Numbered from the whole stretch's first letter, positions 9,059-54,789 are shown. The stretch: 63,792 nucleotides of DNA, filler included, from Basidioascus undulatus (GCA_000826855.1; 7 parts of 7 records of this genome joined end to end with filler, not necessarily neighbours in it), one strand, 5' to 3'. The notes: a model not told the origin generated them from the sequence alone. Made by a program: numbers and translations.

Positions 9059-9158
9059 NNNNNNNNNNNNNNNNNNNNNNNNNNNNNNNNNNNNNNNNNN
9101 NNTTAATTAATTAANNNNNNNNNNNNNNNNNNNNNNNNNNNNNNNNNNNNNNNNNNNN
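9059..9158. other. Artificial contig linker N44-TTAATTAATTAA-N44
   Basis: 100-nt spacer with stops in all frames; identical at all six gaps. Confidence 0.97.
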
Positions 9159-11421: not shown

Positions 11422-11795
11422 CGAACCGGCCATAGCCGCTGCTGCCCACACCGCCTTGACATTCCCAACGCTACATGAGCACTGCCTTCCGTAAACAATC
11501 CCACCCACTCGGACTCACCGAACGGCATCGACTGGTTCAGGTAAAACACCCCAAAGTCGTTCACGCTGTCCCCTCCTCCCCCATCAGCCTCAATCCCCTC
11601 CTCCAACATCCCACACCCCATAAAACCGAACCACGCACCTGACCATCCCACACCTTAACTCCCTCACGACCCTCCTGCACTCCTCCCGGTCATTCCCAAA
11701 CACCGCCGCGCCGAGGCCGTAACGCGTGCCGTTGGCGAGGCGGATCGCGTGCTCGGTCGAGGTCGCGTGCATGACGGTCATTATGGGGGCGAATA
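11422..11795 (-). CDS. Internal/C-terminal fragment of an aldehyde dehydrogenase (Msc7-like)
   Basis: Three exons: FAPIMTVMHATSTEHAIRLANGTRYGLGAAVFG...CGM / SVNDFGVFYLNQSMPF / GGVGSSGYGRFG. These are ALDH C-terminal signature motifs. Confidence 0.8.
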
Positions 11796-11843
11796 CTGCG
11801 GGGTGGGGATTGGATGAGGGAGGGGGGGGGAGGGAAGACGAAC

Positions 11844-13049
11844 GAGATCCGGGTGCACCCCGTCCTCGACATTCCCCAATGCGAGGCTGAACTCGGTTGG
11901 GTAGGCGAGGTACGTATCCCACAGCATACGCTTTGCCCTTCATCCCCCCGCCACCCCACCGTCAGCCTCTTCCATCTAGCAGCATGGAGCAGGGAGGGAA
12001 AGCGGCGCACGAGAGGTACGGCACGTCGTAGTACGCCGCGACGGGGAGGTGGAGCCTGTCGTTCCCCGCGTAGCCGACGAAGCGCGCCCAGAGGGGCGAG
12101 AACGTGCCGAGGATGATCACCCCCGGCTGGGAGGGCAGCGTGAGGAGCGTGCGCAGGAGGGTCTCGAAGAATTGGGAGGTCTCGAGGTCGCTGGGGAGAA
12201 GGGGGAGGTAAGCGGGATGGGGAAAGAGTGGCCGGGGGGAAGACAAACTTGGAGAGGTCGTTCACGTCGAACCTGGGTGAAGACGGGGCTTAGCGACACG
12301 CCGTGAGGGAACAAGGGACGCAGCACGCACTCAACCAAGACGATGTCCACATCCTCCGGCAAGTGCGCCTCAGCGCACAGCCCAAAGTATCTGCTGTCGG
12401 TGGCTGTGCGGACCGCAGGTTGAGCGTGCGTGCGGCAGACATGCTGCAAAAAGACACACCTCCAATCGCCGCATTCACGAGCTTGTTCTCCGGATGGGGC
12501 AGCGTTACGTTCAGCCAGCGAAGGAAGCGCTGGGAGTATGTGTTCGGGTTGTAATTCAGTGAGCCGGTGTAACCTTCGGGCTGGCTGAGCTTATAGCCTT
12601 GGGAGACTGCACCCCTTCCAAATTGGTGAGTCTCGCCGAGATCGAGAAGGAAGACGAAGTTGCGACCTACCCGAACCGCCCAGCACCCCAACAGTCAAGC
12701 CCCTCCCCTCGCTGCCAGCCCGCCTCAATACGCTTCGCACGCGCTCGCCCGAGCTCTCCCAGTACCGCCCTCGTCGGAGCGTGTCAGCGCCGTACTTGCT
12801 CAGGAGGGGGTCGCCCTCGGCTGAGCAGAAGGGGAACGCGGGTGGGTCGGACGCGGGGGCGCCCGAGAAGGGATGCGCTGCGGCGGCGGACGCGGTGGAT
12901 AGTGAGGAGGAGGAGGGGGAGGCAGCGAAGGGTGGGAGTGGTACTGGTCGGAGGGAAGGCGAGGTAAGGTGCAGGAGGACGAGCGCGATGAGCGTGACTG
13001 GCAGGGCGCGGATCAGGAAAGCTGACAGCCGAAGGGACTGTACGGCCAT
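11844..13049 (-). CDS. CAP64-like SGNH/GDSL hydrolase-domain membrane protein, C-terminally truncated
   Basis: N-terminal TM anchor, then VGVLGGS/VSQG, LVNAAIGG/TDSRYFGLCAEAHLPEDVDIVLVE/FDVND, FETLLRTLLTLPSQPGVI, YYDVPYLS and catalytic-type DGVHP. Confidence 0.8.
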
Positions 13050-18117: not shown

Positions 18118-18211
18118 AATCCACCGATACGCAGAAGAGCTGTGACGAGTGCGTTGTCTTCACCTCCTCCCGCACTCGGGCGCTCGCTCACGCCCCCGTT
18201 TCCCCCCCCCC

Positions 18212-18311
18212 NNNNNNNNNNNNNNNNNNNNNNNNNNNNNNNNNNNNNNNNNNNNTTAATTAATTAANNNNNNNNNNNNNNNNNNNNNNNNNNNNNNNNN
18301 NNNNNNNNNNN
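18212..18311. other. Artificial contig linker
   Basis: N44-TTAATTAATTAA-N44. Confidence 0.97.
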
Positions 18312-27352: not shown

Positions 27353-27452
27353 NNNNNNNNNNNNNNNNNNNNNNNNNNNNNNNNNNNNNNNNNNNNTTAA
27401 TTAATTAANNNNNNNNNNNNNNNNNNNNNNNNNNNNNNNNNNNNNNNNNNNN
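27353..27452. other. Artificial contig linker
   Basis: N44-TTAATTAATTAA-N44. Confidence 0.97.
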
Positions 27453-30460: not shown

Positions 30461-32831
30461 TCAAGAGCGGGCGTAGCGAGGCTTGAGGACGACGGGGAGA
30501 GCGCCCTTGGTCGCGCTATTTTGAACGAAGCGAATCATAAGCATTGAAGATCTAGACCCTGAGAAAAAAGAGGGAGATGTACGAGAACTGGTCCTTGATG
30601 GTGTTTTCGAAAGCGAGCGGGTCCCAGTCGCGCACGGGCTCGACGTCGAAGCGAGCGAGGATGGTGGCGAGCGCGATGCGCATCTCGTTGAGCGCGAAGG
30701 GGCGGCCGGCACAAGCGTAAGAACCTAAAAGGAAGGGAATTCTTTGGTCTGGTGCAACCTAGGCTGGAAGGAGGATACGGACCTTTGCTGAAGGGGAAGA
30801 ATGCGCTGCGGTCGCAGGTGCCGTCGAGCCACCGCGAGGGTCGGAAGGAGTCAGCGCTGTCGAAGAGGGGATGTGTTAGCAAAGTAGGTCGGAGCGGTAT
30901 CCTGTAAGGGTGTAGGAACGTACTCTTTGCCAAAGTACCGAGGGTCCCGCTGAACAACGTAGGTCGGGATGTATACCGTTGTGCCCTCCGGGACGAACCT
31001 GCAGCCAAGCCCTTTCAGTGGCAGCCCTAGCCTTCGGGACTCAATATCATCGCTCACCGTCCAGCAACGACCGCCCCGCCCTTCCCCGGCATGCGCCCGA
31101 CCCCGCTCAGGCTCGCGGGGGCGAGCCGCAGCGCCTCATCGATGACGGCCTGCATGAGCGGCAGCCGTGCCAGGCCCGCGACGTCCGAAGGCGCGAGGGC
31201 AGCCGCGTCGAGCTCGGCTTGCAGCGCGCGGAGCACGGACGAGTGCTGGATTAGATGGTGGATGATTACGGAGAGGGTGAGCGAGGTCGAGTCGGAGCCG
31301 GCAATGATGATGAGGAGGGTGTCTGGAGAGGTGATGTCAGGCGGGGAGAAAGGGAGAAAGAGGCAGGCTGACCTGAGAGGAGAGCGAGGGCGTCCTTTGA
31401 GGCTGCCGAAGTGCCGTCAAGGTACTGTCCGTCGGTCCCATTGGTAAGTTTAAGTGTTCTTGCCGAAGCTCAATCACGGCCAACGCACAATGTGGGAGAA
31501 GATGTCTTGCGCAGCAGCGCCGGCCTGGATGCGCTCCTCGAGCTTCGCAGTCACGTAGCGGAAGAAGCCCGTCTGGGTCGAGGTTTGAGGAAGAGCGCGC
31601 TGCAGCGGGGTAAGCCAGTGGAGGAATCCGCGAGCGTTGGCTGTAAGGCAACGGGGAACGTTGGGCGTCAGTTCCGCGGACAGGGAAAACGGTCAGGAAA
31701 CTCGTCGGCCACGTACCGACAGTCATCGCCAAGTTGAGCTTCTTAATGAGGTCCCCTGAGTCATCAGTAGCCTATGGAATAAGGCAAATGTCAGATGGCG
31801 TCTGTGATAGCTCGAGCAGCGCGGCGTACCATGAGCTCGAAAGACCCTACGCCGAAGGCCTGGTCGCCCATGACATCGACGGAGAAGTGGCTCAGCAGAC
31901 GCTGTAAAGCCCCACCGACTGTTCAGTTTGCTACTCCCTCCTGCTCTCAAAGACGGAACAACGCACAGAAATGTTCACTTGGCCGTCCTGCTCCTGCTTC
32001 TCCTCAAGCAGCTCGGCCAGCTGCAGCGCACGCTGCACCTTGCCGGGAACGTACGACGCGAGGGCGGCCGGAGTAAACGCTGCGTTTCGTTGGAGAGGAA
32101 TAAGCTGTAGCTCTGGAATGCGGTGCTGCGACAGTCAAGCGCACCTTTGATCCAGTCTTTCCGACGCGCATCGTGCTCGTCCTTGAACCGCGTCGTAAGG
32201 AGCGAACCGCCCGAACCGTCACCGCGCTTGCTGAGTGTGCCTGTGCCATCCACCCATCCGGATCAGCTGAATTCCCAATATCAAGGTGGAAACAGGCCAG
32301 ACATACCGTCATACCACGCGCCCTTGTGGAAACCCGCGCCGTGCACGGTGGACAGTGCGTCGGCGTGGCGGATGGAAAGCTCGTTAGGTCCTGCGAAGGT
32401 CGGAAGCAAGTCAGACTCGGGGAAGGAAGGGAGTTATAGGGGAGGACGAACCGATTCGAACAAAGTCGCCGTACTGCTGATGAAGCTTCTGGAGTACGAG
32501 ATGCGTGTCGCCCTTGAAGGCGTGGTACGACCGCCAAGCCATGCTGAGCTTGCATTGCGTCGGACCCGGCTGTATATCCCACTCGTACATTTAGCCTGAG
32601 TCATTCCGAAATCAAGATAGTGGGGCGTACGAATTTCGCGAGCGGGTGGGCGGGGGAGAGGCGATAGGCGGCGATGGAGAAAGCCAAGGTGAGGAGGACG
32701 ACGAGTGGGCGGATGGGCAGGGCGGTGATTACAGCCAAAAGGAGGAAGGAAGCCTGTGCGAGTGTTGGTTCGTAGCGGTTGAAGAGCGCGTGGAGGGCGA
32801 GTCCGAGAGCGAGCGAGGGGAAGAGCGCCAT
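30461..32831 (-). CDS. Cytochrome P450 monooxygenase, multi-exon
   Basis: TM anchor, YRLSPAHPLAKF/PGP, LHQQYGDFVRIG/PNELS, I-helix IIAGSDST, EALR, FRPSRW, and haem motif FSKG/SYACAG. Confidence 0.93.
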
Positions 32832-34061: not shown

Positions 34062-36471
<2,410 letters not shown>

Positions 36472-36571
36472 NNNNNNNNNNNNNNNNNNNNNNNNNNNNN
36501 NNNNNNNNNNNNNNNTTAATTAATTAANNNNNNNNNNNNNNNNNNNNNNNNNNNNNNNNNNNNNNNNNNNN
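36472..36571. other. Artificial contig linker
   Basis: N44-TTAATTAATTAA-N44. Confidence 0.97.
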
Positions 36572-45582: not shown

Positions 45583-45682
45583 NNNNNNNNNNNNNNNNNN
45601 NNNNNNNNNNNNNNNNNNNNNNNNNNTTAATTAATTAANNNNNNNNNNNNNNNNNNNNNNNNNNNNNNNNNNNNNNNNNNNN
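45583..45682. other. Artificial contig linker
   Basis: N44-TTAATTAATTAA-N44. Confidence 0.97.
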
Positions 45683-45929
45683 GGGGGGGGGGGGGGGGGG
45701 GGGGTTGCGAATGCGTTAATATACATTGGACGTCAGCGGGCTGAGCGGTGCGGGAGATGCCGCATAAAACTAAGAGCAGCTGCCTGGTGCTACAGATTAT
45801 TACGGTGCGTGATGCAAAGAGAGCGAGAGTGGGCAGAGTACACAGTCTGGTCGATGCGAGCTAGCGAGATGCTATGCAGAAGAGAATAAGTGGAGTAGTG
45901 GTTGAGTGAGAAGACGAGAAATTCAGGGA

Positions 45930-47311
45930 TCAGAAATCGGCATCGAGCGTGAAGCCGTCGTTTGCCCTCGCGCTCAATGTAGGCGTATGCACAGCGCTCA
46001 CATTCCCTTGACCAATTCGCGGCGTTGACGCGCGACTCGTCCCGGCTATTCCGTTCCCGCAAATGTGTCGGGTCAGCTCGTTCTCCGCCGTGATCGTGCA
46101 TTTAGCTGAAGGAGACGTACGCGTCGGAATTTCAGGCTCGGGTAACGTCCCGTCGGAGAGCGGATTCGGCGCGTTGCCGTAGAGCGGCGGGAGATTGAGG
46201 GAACGCAGGAGGGAGTCGGCTTGGTGCTGAGCGAGGAGGGTGAGGGTGGGGACGTCCTATGCAAGGGGAAGGCGACGCGATACAGAGGACAAGCCGGGGA
46301 CGAGAAAAAGGGGTAGACCAAGGTTGAGCGAAGATGCGTTAGCCGAGATAGAGAGAGGAAGGGGCCGACGGACAAAGCCGGTAGGAAACACGCACGTAGG
46401 GGGACAGATCCCGCGCAGGCAAGGATACTACCTCAATTTGAACAGCCTGTCCGATGAGAGCCATAATCGTTTCGGGGGAAGGTTGTGTGATGAGATGTTG
46501 TATCAGAACGATGCAGAATTCTTTGTGTTGAATGTTCCGCGAGGTCAGCATCCAGCCTGCGCCGAAGAGAAACGTCGGAAACACACCGGACACTCTCCAC
46601 ACAGCTTTCCACCCCTGCGCACCGACATCGCCTCCCATGCATGCCCACCACCCAGCCTCGAAGGTGCGCCGGCCGACAGCGTAAGCGAGGAGGCGCTCGC
46701 CGAACGTCCCACGCTGCGAATGCAGGAAGTCGGCTTTGTCCGCAGGGGGAGTCGGCAGATCGGGTGGAGAGAGAACAGCGAGGGATTCGAGGGTAATATT
46801 TTCTCTGGAAGTCATTTTGTGCGAGTGTAAGAGTGAAAGCTTAGGGCAAGGAAGGATGAGGTGGGCGACGTACTGCATCCCGGCGAAGCCCCAAAAGCAC
46901 CGCGCTTCGGCGGCCTTGATTTCCTCACCCCAGCGCTCGCACCACCTTCCCCCTGAACGACGCTCTCGCCCCGCGTTCCCGTTATCCCAGCTGAGCAGAG
47001 AGGACGCGGCGCTTGCCTGCCCTGAAGAGAGCGGCGAAGAAGGGGACGAGAGGGATTCGGCGGGCGTGAAAGTGTGCAGGAGCGACTTATAATGCGCCCA
47101 TATCTGTGTAAGATAAAACACAGAACGTCAGCGGAGATTGTTATTACCTGGAGGACAGACGTACCAAAGGATATCGGATCGGAAATAGCACGAAGCGATT
47201 CGGCGTCTCGACGAGAAGAGGTTCGACCGGTCCCCGGTCCTCCATGCCCTTGCCCTCATTCGCCGATATTGAAAGAGACGCCAGATGATCTGGCAGTTGC
47301 ACCAGAGACAT
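45930..47311 (-). CDS. Degenerate ribonucleotide reductase small-subunit (R2/beta) homologue, predicted radical-less, 345 aa
   Basis: Exons 47311-47165, 47103-46874, 46804-46396, 46256-46121, 46045-45930 total 1038 nt with an open frame. Motifs EPLLVETPNRFVLFPIRY, EEIKAAEARCFWGF, GTFGERLLAYA, AVQIE, ADSLL and C-terminal FTLDADF. Confidence 0.85.
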
Positions 47312-47961
47312 GAGGATGGGGATCTGGGTAAGATCAGGCGATATGAAAGGACAAGGGGAGAGGGGATCAAAGGAGTGAAATGACGAAACGAGCGTGGAAA
47401 TCTTTGGCGATCCGCGATTATTCGTTTCACGTGATATTTGGATTACTCAAAGCGACAAATAGTTGTCACCACGTAAAACACCATCCAAGTACCGACAAAA
47501 GCAGAGCAAATTTTGATCGAGCGCTTTTTGATTGCAAAGCCGCATGTGATGCACTTGTACAGCAGAGGAAGCCGCTGTCATGACCAATCGGCACACGGCT
47601 TCTGGCTGTGTTCGGAACGTCGCAGATCCACAACTGCAGGTAGAAGCCAGTGCGTATGAATTGGGCCAAGTAGAAGTATTATATAAGGGAAGAAACGCGC
47701 GATCTGGCGCCTTCAAAGCCTCGAGTCCGCATGCTGTCGTTTCCTACCTACCGTGTTGCGCTCTTCACCGCAGCCGCCGAAGGAGCACCAGCGAAGAAAC
47801 ACCGAGGTCGCGAAGCAAGAAAAATAGTGTTCTACGATACACAATGACCATACAGTACAATAAAGCACACGCGAGAAGTCCAGAGCGGCGGAGTGCAGCC
47901 CGATACGCCATGCAACGATCTGGCCAGCCGCCGCCGCCCTCGGAATCGGAAACGGTTTAGA

Positions 47962-50900
47962 TCAAGCCTCTGCCGCCTCCTTCTCCTTCTCCTTCCGGCG
48001 AATAGTCGAGTCTGCACGTCCCAATGAGCATTCGTCAGATAGTTTGACCAGATGGTAAGGGCGTCGTCACACTTACTGTCCTCCTTGCGGCGGTGCGCCA
48101 GGTATGCCGGGTCGGAAAGGCAGTCGTGGCAGGTCTGTGCCGAAGGAAAAAGGAGCCCTTAGAAAAGGTGCGGGGACAACAGCTAGTGCGAACGTACCAA
48201 GAACCACGAGCCGGTCGTGCGGGTGAAGCCGAGCGCGCGGTAGAGGGGCAGGGTAGGACCGATGCTCTCGATGTCGCCGGGGGGCAGACAGTCCTGCATA
48301 AAGGTATACGTCAGAATGCCGCCCATGCGACGAGCAGGGGCGCCTGCTCACCTCGCACCAGCAGTTGCTGCATGTGCCACACTTGAACAGCATGTTGCCG
48401 GCGTCCGCGGCAGAGCGATCGCACGTGCCGCAGCTGCAATAAAGCGACGCTCAGTCACGAGCTGGAGAGGATACGTGGCCTGCAAAGACGCACCGGTGCT
48501 GAGGGCAGAAGAAGAACATGGAACGCGCCGCGTCCTTCGGCTTCACGCCGATGCACTCTGCGTGGCAAACTCTCGGGCAACCAGTGCACTCGTACAGCAA
48601 CTGCGATAAGGCGCGCGGAATCAGCTGTCGAGCTCGGGGAAATGCGAACGTTACACATGGTAAGAGCGTTTCTTACACCCCCGTCATGGCAAACCGAGCA
48701 GTACGACTCGTGCTCTGTACGAAACAAATGTCAGTACGGGGGCCGGAAACTGGCAACAAATTATACTTGCCGTAGACCATCTTCTCGCGCTTGCTGTTGG
48801 TGCTCGGGAAAGTCAGCATTTTCCAGAAAACCCATTGATTATACACCACGTACGTGTTTCCGAGCGATGCAGCGACCTTGGGGTCGGACGTGATGCTCTT
48901 GACGCTACAGTGCACGGTTTCGTTAGCTATGGTGACTGGCAAGCACGGTACAGACGAGAAGGTAACATACGCCTCCCACGGCTTGTTCCCCATGCTCTCG
49001 GCGAGCACGGGGTGCCCGTCGACGTAGACGATGCGCTCCGTGCGCGTGCGCTTCTCCGTCTCGTTCTGCTGCTGCTGCTGCTTCTCCCACTCTGACAAGC
49101 CCCAACAATTCAACATGAGCGCGGACCGAGAGCAAGGCCAAGGGAAACAAGTGCGCGCGACCCACCCTTGCGGATATCGATGTTGGTGATCGGACCGCCC
49201 TTAGGAATCATGCGCCCCTGGAAAAGACGGGTGGAGACCTGCCAGTGTGGAGGTGATGTCACGCAGTCAGGCACAGGGGCGCGTCCAGATCTAGCAAACG
49301 ACGCACCTGCTCAACACCCTGCAGCAACTTGCGCTCCTCCTCCTCAGCCGCCTTGAACGCGTCCTCCGGCGTCTCCGCATTCGGGTCAATGCTTTGCTTG
49401 AGCAGGAGGTCTTTGCCGCCCTCAAGCTGAATACGCGGGGTGAAGCCTGATCAGCCAGAGCGGAGGGTCGGACTGCTGAGTCACAACGTACCCTCTGCGA
49501 ACGAGTAATGATGTCGGCCGCGGACGCGTTCATGAACTCTTCATAGCCCGTCTCGCCCTAAGCGTGCGCGTCCACAGCTGTCAGTCAAGTACGGCGCTTG
49601 CAGGACACCGAGTTGGACTGACCTTCTCGAGATCGCCCCACTTGCTAAGCGCGCCCGCACCAGCGCGGAGGATGTGGCGCAGGTCCTTGACCGACATCGT
49701 CGGGCCCTCCTCGTTCGGGTCCTGGTGAGTCGCAGAGTCGGTCATGACCTTGAGGCTGAGATCTGCATGGCCATCGGAGCAGGTATGAGAAAGCGGTCGT
49801 AGCGCCAGCAGCACGTTGGTTCCGCCGAGACGAACAGAGCTTCTTCTTCAGCCGCGAGAGCATCTGGTCCTCAACGCTATCCTGAATGACCATCTTGTAG
49901 ACCTGCGGATTGGAAGCTCGTCAGCGACAGAGCTGGGAAGAGAATGTGCTCGTAAAGCCGTACCTGAACGATCTTGGTCTGCCCAATCCGGTGCGCACGA
50001 GCAACCGCTTGCAGGTCGACTTGGGGGTTCCAGCTGTCGAGGAGTACCACAAGTCAACGTCTCTTCTCCCTTCATAGAAGCTCGACGGACTCACTGCTGG
50101 TCGAGCATGATGACGTGGTCCGCCGCGGTAAGATTCTGCAGGATAGACGATGGCACATCAGTGCCTCGTGAAATGGAAGCCGACCTTCAACGGAAACGTA
50201 CGATACCAAGGCCGCCGGCAGACGTGCTAAGCAAGAAGACCTCGTAGACTGATCACCTCGTGCCATGTCAGTTACTACAAGCCGACGCATGGACGAGCTT
50301 GACATACAATCGTCGTTCTGCTGGAACAAGCGAATCTGGATCGTGCGCATCGGGCGGGCGGTGCTGCCGTCGAGACGCGCATACTTGATGTCGCGGAGGT
50401 TGAGGAAGTCCTCGACGACGTCCAGCATCCTGCAGCAGACGAAAGTCAGTACTACTGGATGGTTCGGGTGAAAGACGACGGGCACGAACTTCGTCCACTG
50501 CGAGAAGATCAGGACCTTGTGCTTCTTGGGCAGGAGGTCCTGCAGGATCTTGTCGAGCAGGACGAGCTTGGAGGACGCCGTCACGATATGCTCGCCTTGA
50601 GTGATCTGAGCACCGGAGAAACCGACGCATCAGCATACATAGGCAACCGAAAGCGGAGAACGAGGGAAAATAAGGCATACCGGCTCCGGCTCGGCGTGCG
50701 CAAGGAGGTACGGGTGATCGCAGACCTGTTGAAACGAAGTCAGGGGTGGTAACAATCGCCGATAAGCCCATATCAATCGTACCCTCCGAAGCTGCAAAAG
50801 CAGGTTCATCTGTGGTCGCCCGCACGTGACCCGTCAGCTTTCCACTACTTCGCTCTGACGATCCATACCATTAACGTACGAGCTTCTGCCACTTCCCGGC

Positions 50901-53165
50901 CTCCTTGGTGCCGCTCTGCGCACTCTCCAGCGCACGAACGATGCCCTCGTCTATCCCCTCCGCGTTGGCCGCGAAGGGGGGCGTCGCGGACGTGCTCGGG
51001 CCCGCGTCGGGCGTAGCGGCGGACAGGTCGCCAGACGACTCGGTCTGGAGACCGGTCTGCGCGCCCGAGGCGCCGGGCCCGAAGAGGTCGCGGATGGACG
51101 TCTTGTCCATGCGCGTCAGGAGACGCTCATACCTGCGAGTTGCGGCAAGGGGCACGAGGGAGACCTGTCAGCGACATGCGGTGGTGGGAATGGAGCCCGC
51201 GAATACAGGCTGCAACGCACCAGAAGCGGGCGAGCGGGCTAAGGGGGACGAAAAGCGTCGTCTCCACCCTGGGTGGGACCGTGACCGCGACTGTGTCCTT
51301 TGTGCTGTTCACACAACGCGCAGCATCAGAATACTAGCAGCGCATGCAAGGGACGTTATGAGCCAGACGCACCGACGCAGCATGATGAGCGCGAGGAGGC
51401 GCTGTGCACAGGACAGGAACGCGGGGTCGACGTTGCCCTTCGTGAGATCGAACGAGGCGGAGAACGCGGCGGATGTGGCGGCGGTGAAGAGCGTGGGGTA
51501 GAGCCAGTGGAAGAGGGACCAGACTGTTTGTCAAAGAATGCCTGCAGGTAAGCTCGCTGATCGAAAGGTGACTTGAGCCGAAGCATTGGCTGAAATGACT
51601 TGCGCTCAAACATCTGTGGCGATCGCACATGTATCAGTAAAGAGACGCAATTGCAATGAGATCCCGAAGACACACGTTGTTCTGCAGCGGCGTGCCCGTC
51701 AGAAGAAGACGGTACTGCGAGCCGAAGCCCTGCGTCGACTTCGAGATCGCCGTCTCGGCGTTCTTGATCTGCATCGGGGGTCAGTGAGTGATAAGTGTAT
51801 TATCTGCCAACGGGATTGGCTCGAGCGCACCTTGTGGCCCTCGTCGAGAACGAAGTACTTCCACCCTCCGCGGAGCTTGAGGTACGTGTTCTCCGCCGCG
51901 TAGGACTCGTAGGTGCAAACGACGATGTCGGGGTTAGAGTTCTGCAAAGACGCCTTGACGGCCGCGCGCTCGTTCGCCGATCCGTGGAGCTGGTCCGTCC
52001 ATCCTCCCATCAGAGCCAGGTCAAGGAATGCGAGCACAGAGCAACAGAAACGCACCCGGACGGCGGTAGCGCTCGGGTACCAGCGCTTGATCTCGTTCAT
52101 CCAGGACGAGAGGACCGAGAGCGGGCAGACGATGAGGTGCGGGCCCGACACGTCGTGGCGCTCCTTGAGGTACGCGAGGAGCGCGATGGTCTGCAGCGTC
52201 TTGCCGAGGCCCATCTCGTCGCCGAGGATCGCGTTCATGCCGTTCTCGTACATCCACGCGAGGAACGACAGGCCGACGAGCTGTTCACACAAGTCCAATC
52301 AAAATGAATCACGACAGACCCGAAAAAGCCATAAGCAGGAGAAAAGACGCACCTGGAAGTCGCGCATCTCACCGCCCTTGATCAGGCTCGGCTGTTGGTC
52401 GATCTCCTCGTACTGCACAAAGTGCCTGCCCTTGCTACCCGCCTCCTTGGCTTCCTTCTCCGTCGGCTCGAACGCCTTGTCCCGCCCAGGCAGGAGGGGC
52501 TCGAACGTCGACCTGTAGCGCATGAAGAAGAGCGCGCGCTGGAGGTGGTGCGTGGGCGTCTCCTTCGGCCCGCCGTTCACCACGAGCTTGATCTTCTTGT
52601 TGCTGTCGGATGGCGTCGCGCCCTCGCCCTCGCCCTCGCCGCCCTTGGGCGTCCGCTTGCTCGAGGACGGCGTGGACGACGCCTTGCGCTTCGTCGGCGG
52701 ACGCGGGGTCGCGAACGTGTACTGGCTCGGCTTGCGCTCGCGCAGCGAGTACGAGTTGGAGCGGGGCAGCGTCGCGGGTTGCTGCTGCTGTTGCGGCGCA
52801 GCCATAGGCGTGTCGGGAGCGCTCTGCGCCTGCGCCTGCGCCTGCGCAGGCTCGGCCGGGAGAATGGGGACCGCAGGTTGAGTGATTGGCGCCGCAACTG
52901 GCTGCTGGGGGGCTGCAGGCGCGTTGGGGGCGCTCTGGGTCGGCGCCTGCGTAGCCTCGACCGGGAGAGCGGGGACCGGAGGCTGGGCGATGGGCGCAGC
53001 GGACGGCTGCTGCACCTCGGCGGGGACGTCGGGAAGCTGCTGATTCTTGGGCGGGGACGCAACGAACGCGGGCGTCTGCGCCGGAGTCGTCGCAGGCGTC
53101 GTGCCGTCGAGCGGTGTCGGCGTCGACGTAGATGGCGCCGTCGCCGATGTTGTTGACTCAGACAT
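47962..53165 (-). CDS. SNF2-family chromatin-remodelling ATPase (ISWI-related) with C-terminal PHD/Cys-His fingers
   Basis: [52 protein letters not shown]. Tail [42 protein letters not shown]. Confidence 0.92.
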
Positions 53166-54689
53166 TATCTTGAAAAAAGTGAACTAAAAAGTGATATCCT
53201 ATCGTCCAAGCGGAGCCAGGACGGTGAGGAGAGACAGGTGGGTAAGCAGGGAGTGCAAAACGCCCATGGCCGGGGTTCGGCAAGCCAATCGGAATAGATC
53301 ACGTGCTGGCAATTTCGTGTAATTGGCAAGATAAAGAAGCAAAAAGATGAGAAAAAGAACTAACTTTAAAAGCACACGATGGAACGCAGGAAAATGGTGC
53401 GGCTGAAAGCTGGTATGAGTTGGAAGTCGCTGCGGCCCGGGATGGAGGAAGAAAAAGGCCACAAATGAAGTAGGACGCGTCCTCGACGCGTCTTCCTGCA
53501 CACTTTCGCGACTTCGCTCGCCGCTTGATGGCAGAGCTCGTGTCCGCTGGTGGGACTGCTGTAGGGGGCTGTAGTAGCCGAGGTGGCCAGTACTGCCAGT
53601 TTCATTAAGAAAGTCATTAATACAAGATGAAATGAACCATTTGTTTGCATTTGAGCGCTCGCCTGCAGCCCTTTTCTACCGGCTTGCCAACCCAGTACAC
53701 ATTACTGAGATTCACCTGACCATGGGTCTCTCGAGGACATCAAAGATCCAGTCCATTACTACAATCCAATTACTCCAACGCGGTTGATGGAGACAACGCA
53801 CACTCTCTTCAGCAGACTCGAAGGCCCTCGGCCCGCCAAATTGCACTTCCATCTCCACCACCCCCATCAGAGCTTATCGCAGGTGAACAACAACCCAAAT
53901 ACCCCAAAAATGCCAGTGTTTCACCTACGGTTATATATTGAAGGCCGTTGAATCTCCAACTGTCGACAACACGGGGCTCTCCCAAGTGGGGACTAGCCCC
54001 ACACTCGTCTAGCTTCAAGCTGACTGCGACGCTTGGTCTTGTAAATCTTGGCAACCCACATAGCGCCACGGTGAAGCTGAAAGGGGAGGGGAGCCTCTGA
54101 AGGCGGATTTTGAGATGTTACGATAGAGCTACTTAGCAAGTGAGGTAAAATTTTGACTGTAAAAAGGACACGATGTTGGAGAGAGGACAACCGGTGGCAC
54201 GGGCCAGGGGCAACGAGGTTGATGAAGGATGAGCGTGAAGAAAATGGTCACAGTCCCAGTCGAGCAGCCCATGCTTTTTCAAGAACAGCCATTTAATTTC
54301 GGATAAATCTTTTTCCGAAGTTTTTACTAATCACACTCACCTGTACCGGTGGCACCTCGCCGTCGCTTCAAGCCGCCGCTGTCTGCCAGCTGTGCTGCGT
54401 GCAGCCTGGCATTTCACCTGCCCTTCAAGTCGGGCGCAATCAGTGAATACGGTACATTATCAGCCTGCATACTCTTCCCAAGGTTTCTGCACCGAAAATC
54501 CCCAATGACCTTCCCCAAAAAGCATCCGCCCCCATTCAAAGCATCCGGCCTCCCATCCCAATCAAGCTTCAAAGCGTCATCCCCTCCCCTCTCCTCCCCT
54601 TCTTACACCCGAGTCCTCCTCCTCTCTCCCCTTTCTTCCTAAAGTATCTCAAATATCGATATCCAACAGCTCAGCTCTCCCTACCCCTA

Positions 54690-54789
54690 NNNNNNNNNNN
54701 NNNNNNNNNNNNNNNNNNNNNNNNNNNNNNNNNTTAATTAATTAANNNNNNNNNNNNNNNNNNNNNNNNNNNNNNNNNNNNNNNNNNNN
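54690..54789. other. Artificial contig linker
   Basis: N44-TTAATTAATTAA-N44. Confidence 0.97.

Follow-up and report, generated by a model that had tools for sequence, protein, structure and literature searches.

A very diverged, apparently non-catalytic R2 homologue that keeps the R1-docking heptapeptide FTLDADF in Basidioascus undulatus

The R2-like gene and its spliced transcript

In this work we analysed a gene related to R2, the small subunit of class Ia ribonucleotide reductase (RNR), that lies on the minus strand at positions 45930-47311 of a 63,792-base stretch of Basidioascus undulatus DNA (the window). As judged by alignment, its product is a catalytically dead R2 homologue in which the heptapeptide that docks R2 onto R1 is kept at the C-terminus. 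The window is made of seven separate contigs, of 9,058 down to 9,003 bases each in falling order, joined by linkers of the form N44-TTAATTAATTAA-N44, and the pieces that flank a given contig are not its genomic neighbours. The R2-like gene is on the sixth contig (45683-54689), about 250 bases off that contig's poly-G start.

By frame reading, the open reading frame (ORF) begins with an ATG at 47311 and closes with a stop at 45930-45932. Three sequencing runs (X1, X2 and X3), none of them recorded as RNA, cover the locus. The genomic contigs of X1 and X2 match the window with 0 differences, and X3 provides a single intron-less contig of 1217 nt over 45732-47358, with five joints that are all GT..AG on the minus strand; X3 cover is absent over the introns and over the intergenic DNA past 47385. 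X3 is labelled 'DNA?' and behaves like a transcriptome, with 36,764 contigs for 15.7 M letters, this intron-less contig and no intergenic cover; this is the picture expected of a transcriptome assembly. Were the X3 contig a DNA retrocopy, a spliced mRNA would all the same have been recorded in it. The spliced contig means that the gene is expressed, with six exons and a product of 323 amino acids (aa): translation from its first ATG (47311) follows a frame of 323 codons that has FTLDADF at its end and its stop codon in the last exon. Expression of the R2-like gene, correctly spliced, is therefore supported. The parts of the gene, all on the minus strand, are as follows.

47312-47358, minus: 5' untranslated part, from the X3 contig; holds no ATG
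47165-47311, minus: exon 1, residues 1-49, with EPLL (30-33) and RFVLFPI (39-45)
47104-47164, minus: intron 1, 61 nt, donor GTACGT, acceptor CAG, joint 47103/47165; directly before the I-W of IWAHYK
46874-47103, minus: exon 2, helix A-C relic with TFTPAES, a Ser/Ala/Pro-rich low-complexity stretch and EARCFWGF
46805-46873, minus: intron 2, 69 nt, in frame and stop-free, joint 46804/46874; its removal gives back the canonical GF....ENI spacing
46587-46804, minus: exon 3, with ENITLESLA, a Pro-rich stretch in place of the helix D region, TFGERL and AVGRRTFE
46521-46586, minus: intron 3, 66 nt, donor GTGTGT, acceptor AAG, joint 46520/46587; not in the model of the earlier note
46396-46520, minus: exon 4, helix G relic (PSPETI...AVQIE) and the start of helix H
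46257-46395, minus: intron 4, 139 nt, donor GTGCGT (the donor chosen in the earlier note), joint 46255/46395 (cut +1)
46121-46256, minus: exon 5, helix H relic (ADSLL and NPL) followed by a linker rich in Pro, Ser and Thr
46046-46120, minus: intron 5, 75 nt, donor GTACGT, in frame and stop-free, joint 46045/46121
45930-46045, minus: coding part of exon 6, low-complexity linker, FTLDADF (45933-45953) and stop TGA (45930-45932)
45732-45929, minus: 3' untranslated part, from the X3 contig

An earlier note on this DNA, made from the sequence alone, had read the gene as five exons encoding 345 aa. When this model (model B) was rebuilt from its coordinates (exons 47311-47165, 47103-46874, 46804-46396, 46256-46121 and 45930-46045, with donor GTACGT three times and GTGCGT once), its four introns of 61, 69, 139 and 75 nt proved to be exactly those of the X3 contig, and the end in FTLDADF stood in the spliced frame; the exon count and the length did not, the fifth joint being new. 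The additional 66-nt intron (46521-46586), with the ends GTGTGT...AAG, cuts out GVFPTFLFGAGWMLTSRNIQHK, a relic of helix F that carries SRNIQH. The change from canonical SRDEGLH to SRNIQH, which the earlier note had counted among the alterations of the protein, exists in the DNA and is absent from the observed mRNA, so that the mature protein is more degenerate than had been described. The 323-aa isoform alone is observed in X3; since minor forms are lost from contigs, a 345-aa form with this intron left in is possible. Another candidate structure (model A, donor GTAGTA at 46431, 333 aa) is ruled out by the joint in the X3 contig.

Read in frame, the 66-nt intron resembles R2 helix F (GxxP...SRNIQH compared with GLMPGLTF..SRDEGMH), and because this relic is still readable the intron suggests former coding sequence that has turned into an intron. 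Three of the five introns (69, 66 and 75 nt) have a length divisible by three and no in-frame stop, and their retention keeps the frame; by a rough estimate the chance of this is about 3%. Three read-through predictions of canonical fungal R2s (P0005-P0007) become R2-like at the position of intron 1, from which we infer that an intron before I-W is common to canonical R2s and to this gene.

Upstream, the intergenic region 47312-47730 is shared with a diverging plus-strand ORF and contains CACGTG (47428), CCAAT (47584) and TATATA (47680). Downstream, a frame other than that of the gene reads HYSTYSLL at 45877-45900 (minus strand), within the 3' untranslated part; its likeness to the canonical radical-Tyr motif HSETYSLL (tblastn E 2.9) is probably due to chance.

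Relation to class Ia R2 and state of the catalytic residues

On the evidence of the alignments, the gene is a true, very diverged homologue of eukaryotic class Ia R2. Against PDB sequences, phmmer matches it with human RRM2B at E 6.6e-8 and with yeast Rnr4 (1jk0_B) at E 0.0022; with a local profile of 72 full-length canonical R2s the spliced protein reaches 66.6 bits, and none of 200 shuffles scores above -0.7; and tblastn with a canonical basidiomycete R2 (P0054) gives 62.8 + 30.4 bits, solely in the annotated frames. The colinearity with R2 from EPLL/RFVLFPI to the C-terminus, already noticed by eye, is upheld by the residue-level alignment and by these scores. The divergence is large: identity to six canonical Agaricomycete R2s is 32-35%, compared with 71-80% among those six, and the columns invariant in them number 246, of which the gene keeps 84, has changed 119 and lacks 43. 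Low complexity marks two stretches, of 43 and 47 aa, in which Pro, Ser, Gly, Thr, Ala and Gln abound. In Pfam, the unspliced 262-aa ORF scores below the gathering threshold of Ribonuc_red_sm (PF00268), at 11.4 bits against 33.6, and for three raw ORF pieces this sub-threshold R2 match was the sole hit, with no other domain detected.

The metal ligands of class Ia R2 are six: Asp, Glu, His, Glu, Glu and His. In this gene ENITLESLA stands for canonical ENIHSETYS, so that T130 replaces the iron His and L134 the radical Tyr, the first Glu (E127) being retained, and VGRRTFE stands for AVEGIFF, with the Glu ligand turned into R171. The canonical ligand Asp is aligned with an Asn, an Asp being found three residues upstream, and the Glu/His ligand segment of helix F is spliced out with the 66-nt intron. 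E127 is therefore the only ligand of the six that is clearly kept, with possibly one more. The radical-transfer path is affected as well: the pathway Trp of SFWTAEE is T62 in TFTPAES, nothing corresponds to the TNFFEKRVSDY segment with the C-terminal pathway Tyr, and the last 58 residues contain no Tyr. The residue-level alignment thus bears out three of the four changes listed in the earlier note, those at ENITLESLA, at VGRRTFE and in the Trp and C-terminal Tyr of the path, and shows loss, not retention, of the iron ligands and the radical Tyr. From these residues the protein is predicted to be a catalytically dead R2 homologue, without the radical Tyr or a radical-transfer path. The body is damaged too. 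Besides the 43 deleted invariant columns, the region of helix B is of low complexity, that of helix D has a Pro-rich replacement and half of helix F is spliced out, and a body altered to this extent is, by prediction, too damaged for a normal R2 fold.

The last seven residues of the 323-aa protein are FTLDADF (codons 45933-45953), preceded by about 47 residues of unalignable linker. The tails of 72 canonical basidiomycete R2s are FSLDEDF in 29 cases, FTLDEDF in 16 and fifteen further close variants in the other 27; FTLDADF is found in none of the 72. The tail is identical to the mammalian peptide at 7/7 positions and to the common fungal FTLDEDF at 6/7. The acetylated peptide Ac-FTLDADF (P7) corresponds to the C-terminus of R2 and, in the available part of the source, competes with R2 for the R1 cleft, to which it binds, and inhibits the RNR of mouse and of yeast with half-maximal inhibitory concentrations (IC50) of 8.9 and 31 uM, respectively (PMC3483043), in agreement with what the earlier note says of it. 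By its sequence, then, the R1-docking heptapeptide is kept in a dead R2 homologue.

Constraint, decay and possible functions

The reading that we favour, tentatively and as possible rather than probable, is that the gene encodes an expressed, non-catalytic descendant of class Ia R2 acting as a modulator or decoy on R1. Such a protein would be unable either to generate a radical or to transfer one, the heptapeptide would still be presented to the peptide-binding cleft of R1 by its flexible, low-complexity C-terminal linker, and the R1 sites filled by the decoy would be unavailable to active beta2. Occupation of these sites would mean less RNR activity and a lower supply of deoxynucleoside triphosphates (dNTPs), and the net outcome would be a damping or buffering of both, as by a built-in protein version of the P7 inhibitor. 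The islands kept in the body (the N-terminal arm, EARCFWGF, TFGERL and the helix G/H relics) may matter for stability or regulation, or may allow some remaining pairing with canonical beta. More doubtful is the wider proposal of a natural RNR inhibitor made from RNR's own small subunit, in which selection would keep mainly the frame, a few islands and the tail on a disordered linker.

Several points weigh against a decoy. The transcript evidence is one contig from one run, X3, whose sample is the same as that of genome run X2 and whose kind is only guessed ('DNA?'). A pure tail decoy has no need of conserved body islands, and the affinity of a single tail for R1 is micromolar, so that a monomeric decoy would need to be abundant. 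Neither a canonical R2 nor an R1 of this organism was seen, and 150 + 24 long ORFs of the window's seven contigs gave no Ribonuc_red_sm match. Orthologues were sought by shared words with the 262-aa ORF as query, and none was found among 1289 candidates at E <= 1e-3. A search of 1.84 billion representatives (HMMER, E <= 0.001) gave 9 matches and no orthologue, these matches being 6 canonical R2s (28-32% identity, all motifs intact) and 3 repeat proteins, and in a scan of Joint Genome Institute (JGI) metagenomes none of 151 pattern matches was confirmed as an orthologue. The protein collection searched includes many named basidiomycete proteomes. As a sampling control, an exon of the neighbouring SNF2 gene has best relatives at 52-56% identity, in Microbotryomycetes, Agaricomycetes and chytrids; identities this low may come from poor sampling of the lineage or from rapid evolution of the SNF2 subfamily, and the missing orthologues therefore carry an uncertain weight. 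The basidiomycete origin assumed in the earlier note is consistent with the basidiomycetes among these relatives.

Codon usage and composition point in the same direction. They were compared with verified exons of the window, whose other features are the following.

11593-11961, minus: aldehyde dehydrogenase exon; G+C at third codon positions (GC3) 0.87-0.89, codon-usage baseline
31057-31416, minus: cytochrome P450 exon; GC3 in the same range, codon-usage baseline
35251-35721, minus: AAA ATPase exon; GC3 in the same range, codon-usage baseline
50075-53183, minus: SNF2-family helicase gene, SNF2-rel_dom at E 3.3e-34; Helicase_C falls short of its cut-off, at 20.7 bits against 23.5
9059-9158, 18212-18311, 27353-27452, 36472-36571, 45583-45682 and 54690-54789: linkers between contigs

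Homopolymer runs of G or C occur at contig starts and ends (45683-45704 on the sixth contig; others, e.g., at 18202-18211), and a Logan contig of run X2 (10,271 nt) extends about 3.7 kb beyond the poly-G start of the sixth contig and could bridge the gap there.

The GC3 of the R2-like gene is 0.66, compared with 0.88 in four Pfam-verified exons (four contigs, 327 codons; each 0.87-0.89), and lies near intron GC (0.53); GC3 taken over all 210 long ORFs is not discriminating, introns and antisense frames being mixed in. Amino-acid composition has drifted in the direction of that encoded by GC-rich random sequence, with Pro, Ser and Gly up and Phe, Lys and Glu down. GC3 and this drift together fit weak or lapsed constraint and, with the long low-complexity stretches, they speak for a transcribed RNR2 duplicate in decay, in which the open frame and the tail would be leftovers of earlier constraint, or chance, without present function. 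The same reading is favoured by the loss of all catalytic elements, by the weak intron (GTGTGT..AAG) that now cuts out former coding sequence, by the absence of an orthologue from the databases searched and by the Pfam score under threshold, and it would also cover a gene long under constraint that died only recently. We consider it somewhat unlikely and yet a serious rival.

What speaks against decay is first of all the open frame, which purely neutral decay does not fit: when neutral substitution was simulated down to 41% identity from a back-translated canonical R2, none of 300 frames was open (mean 8 in-frame stops), even with indels ignored. Every length difference from canonical R2 is in frame, and the five introns are spliced so that the frame reaches FTLDADF with a stop in the last exon. 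The 84 kept invariant positions form clusters (13 in the longest run, p 0.0008 by permutation; p 0.01 for the number of runs), and the third positions of kept residues are degraded like the rest (GC3 49/81 = 0.60), which means that amino acids were held while synonymous sites degraded. Codon-position periodicity is still present (chi-square 14.6, p 6.6e-4). Together these say that the protein, as far as can be told from its sequence, would have been constrained at a subset of sites for most of its history; constraint at the present day is not implied.

Two other explanations of this pattern were rejected. Compensated frameshifts could be hidden behind the unalignable stretches, and in tblastn no out-of-frame match improves on an E of about 1. 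The conserved islands could also stem from recent gene conversion, and the GC3 of 0.60 at kept residues speaks against this, on the assumption that the parent gene has the GC3 of about 0.88 usual in this genome.

The position of the kept residues bears on the main functional rival of the decoy, an Rnr4-like beta-prime subunit. Such a partner would pair with canonical beta by way of interface elements that it has kept, stabilise it or help cofactor loading, and the heterodimer would dock R1 by both tails. The best-kept island is the N-terminal arm with helix A (the 13 consecutive invariant positions), the others lying where helices C, E, G and H begin, and there are precedents for a partner of this type in yeast Y4 and Plasmodium PfR4/R2_e2, from the portions of PMC3824934 and PMC9431586 that describe them. 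The state of the rest of the body makes this role unlikely: identity to canonical R2 is only 32-35%, when canonical R2s of different orders share 71-80%, and to this come the low-complexity helix B region, the Pro-rich helix D region and the missing half of helix F. In addition, other basidiomycetes manage without such a partner; Cryptococcus neoformans has a second R2, Rnr22, in which the conserved residues are present and which can stand in for Rnr21, in the available part of PMC9431586.

A function outside RNR, in which the R2 scaffold is reused, for instance for binding or regulation, and the match at the tail is unconnected with R1 docking, appears very unlikely. The very fast evolution of most of the body, the new insertions and the Pro/Ser-rich segments would fit it, as would the upstream region 47312-47730, where a promoter motif check found no ACGCGT cell-cycle box. 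Against this stand the absence of any other detected domain and the fact that the one near-perfectly kept element, at the very C-terminus, has a known specific partner.

Comparison with known RNR proteins

With canonical R2s (RRM2, RRM2B/p53R2 and fungal Rnr2/Rnr21/Rnr22) the gene shares colinear helices, its best matches and the C-terminal F-[TS]-L-D-x-D-F. It differs from them in that canonical R2s retain all six ligands and the Tyr, C. neoformans Rnr22 being catalytically competent (PMC9431586, in the text available).

The resemblance to P7 (N-acetyl-FTLDADF) lies in seven identical residues. P7 is a synthetic free peptide, whereas the heptapeptide is here the natural end of a predicted 323-aa protein. 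The small RNR inhibitors of yeasts (Sml1, Hug1, Dif1 and Spd1) are protein-level negative regulators and are partly disordered, in the parts of PMC2965251 and PMC4245953 at hand. They resemble the gene in function, under the decoy reading only; they are unrelated to it in sequence and origin and bind other surfaces (Hug1 on Rnr2, Sml1 on R1). If the decoy reading is true, the cell titrates R1 with a radical-less decoy to set dNTP levels, and the gene would be the first endogenous counterpart of P7. It would then suggest a genetically encoded control of RNR by competition at the subunit interface, which is the principle of peptide and small-molecule inhibitors of the R1-R2 interaction. An expressed fungal copy with its frame intact, stripped to nearly the tail alone, would, moreover, show the minimal selectable unit of R2. 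If the gene is instead a dying duplicate, it offers a clean example of decay, with relaxed codon usage, coding sequence turned into intron and the frame still open.

The closest parallels are the R2 paralogues that have themselves lost cofactor residues. Key radical residues are missing from yeast Y4 and seem to be missing from apicomplexan R2_e2, and both retain the C-terminal motif and are associated with R2 and R1; the R2_e2 clade has long branches and a strongly conserved C-terminal motif, and its member PfR4 associates with R1 and R2 (PMC3824934, from the sections available). Like R2_e2/PfR4 in this description, our gene has lost the residues of radical generation, diverged fast and kept the C-terminal motif. 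Unlike it, R2_e2 is conserved across a phylum, in conserved synteny, with most functional residues kept, as far as the same sections of PMC3824934 go; for our gene no orthologue was found in the searches above, and few functional residues are kept.

S. cerevisiae Rnr4 lacks several iron-binding residues and cannot form a tyrosyl radical, in the part of PMC9431586 that concerns it, which agrees with the earlier note's mention of Rnr4 as an iron-less beta-prime. The present gene is, like Rnr4 in that description, a non-canonical R2 paralogue without the conserved iron-binding residues and, like the Rnr4/PfR4 type in general, lacks cofactor residues yet is expressed. Unlike Rnr4, it has also lost the radical Tyr, the pathway Trp, the segment with the C-terminal pathway Tyr, 43 of the 246 invariant columns and, through splicing, half of helix F, so that the judgement of the earlier note that it is more degenerate than Rnr4 holds against the account given in PMC9431586, as far as it is available. 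Its origin is likely to be independent of that of Rnr4.

A full-text literature search found no report of an inactive R2 in basidiomycetes. Under the decoy reading, the gene would join the known R2 pseudo-enzymes as a third case, independent of the others and the most extreme. The known dead R2 paralogues, yeast Rnr4 and apicomplexan R2_e2/PfR4, keep an R2-like body, and the present gene, a candidate beta-prime subunit that fails the catalytic hallmarks of R2 and is, by alignment, clearly R2-derived, is best filed as a more extreme variant of these non-catalytic R2 paralogues.

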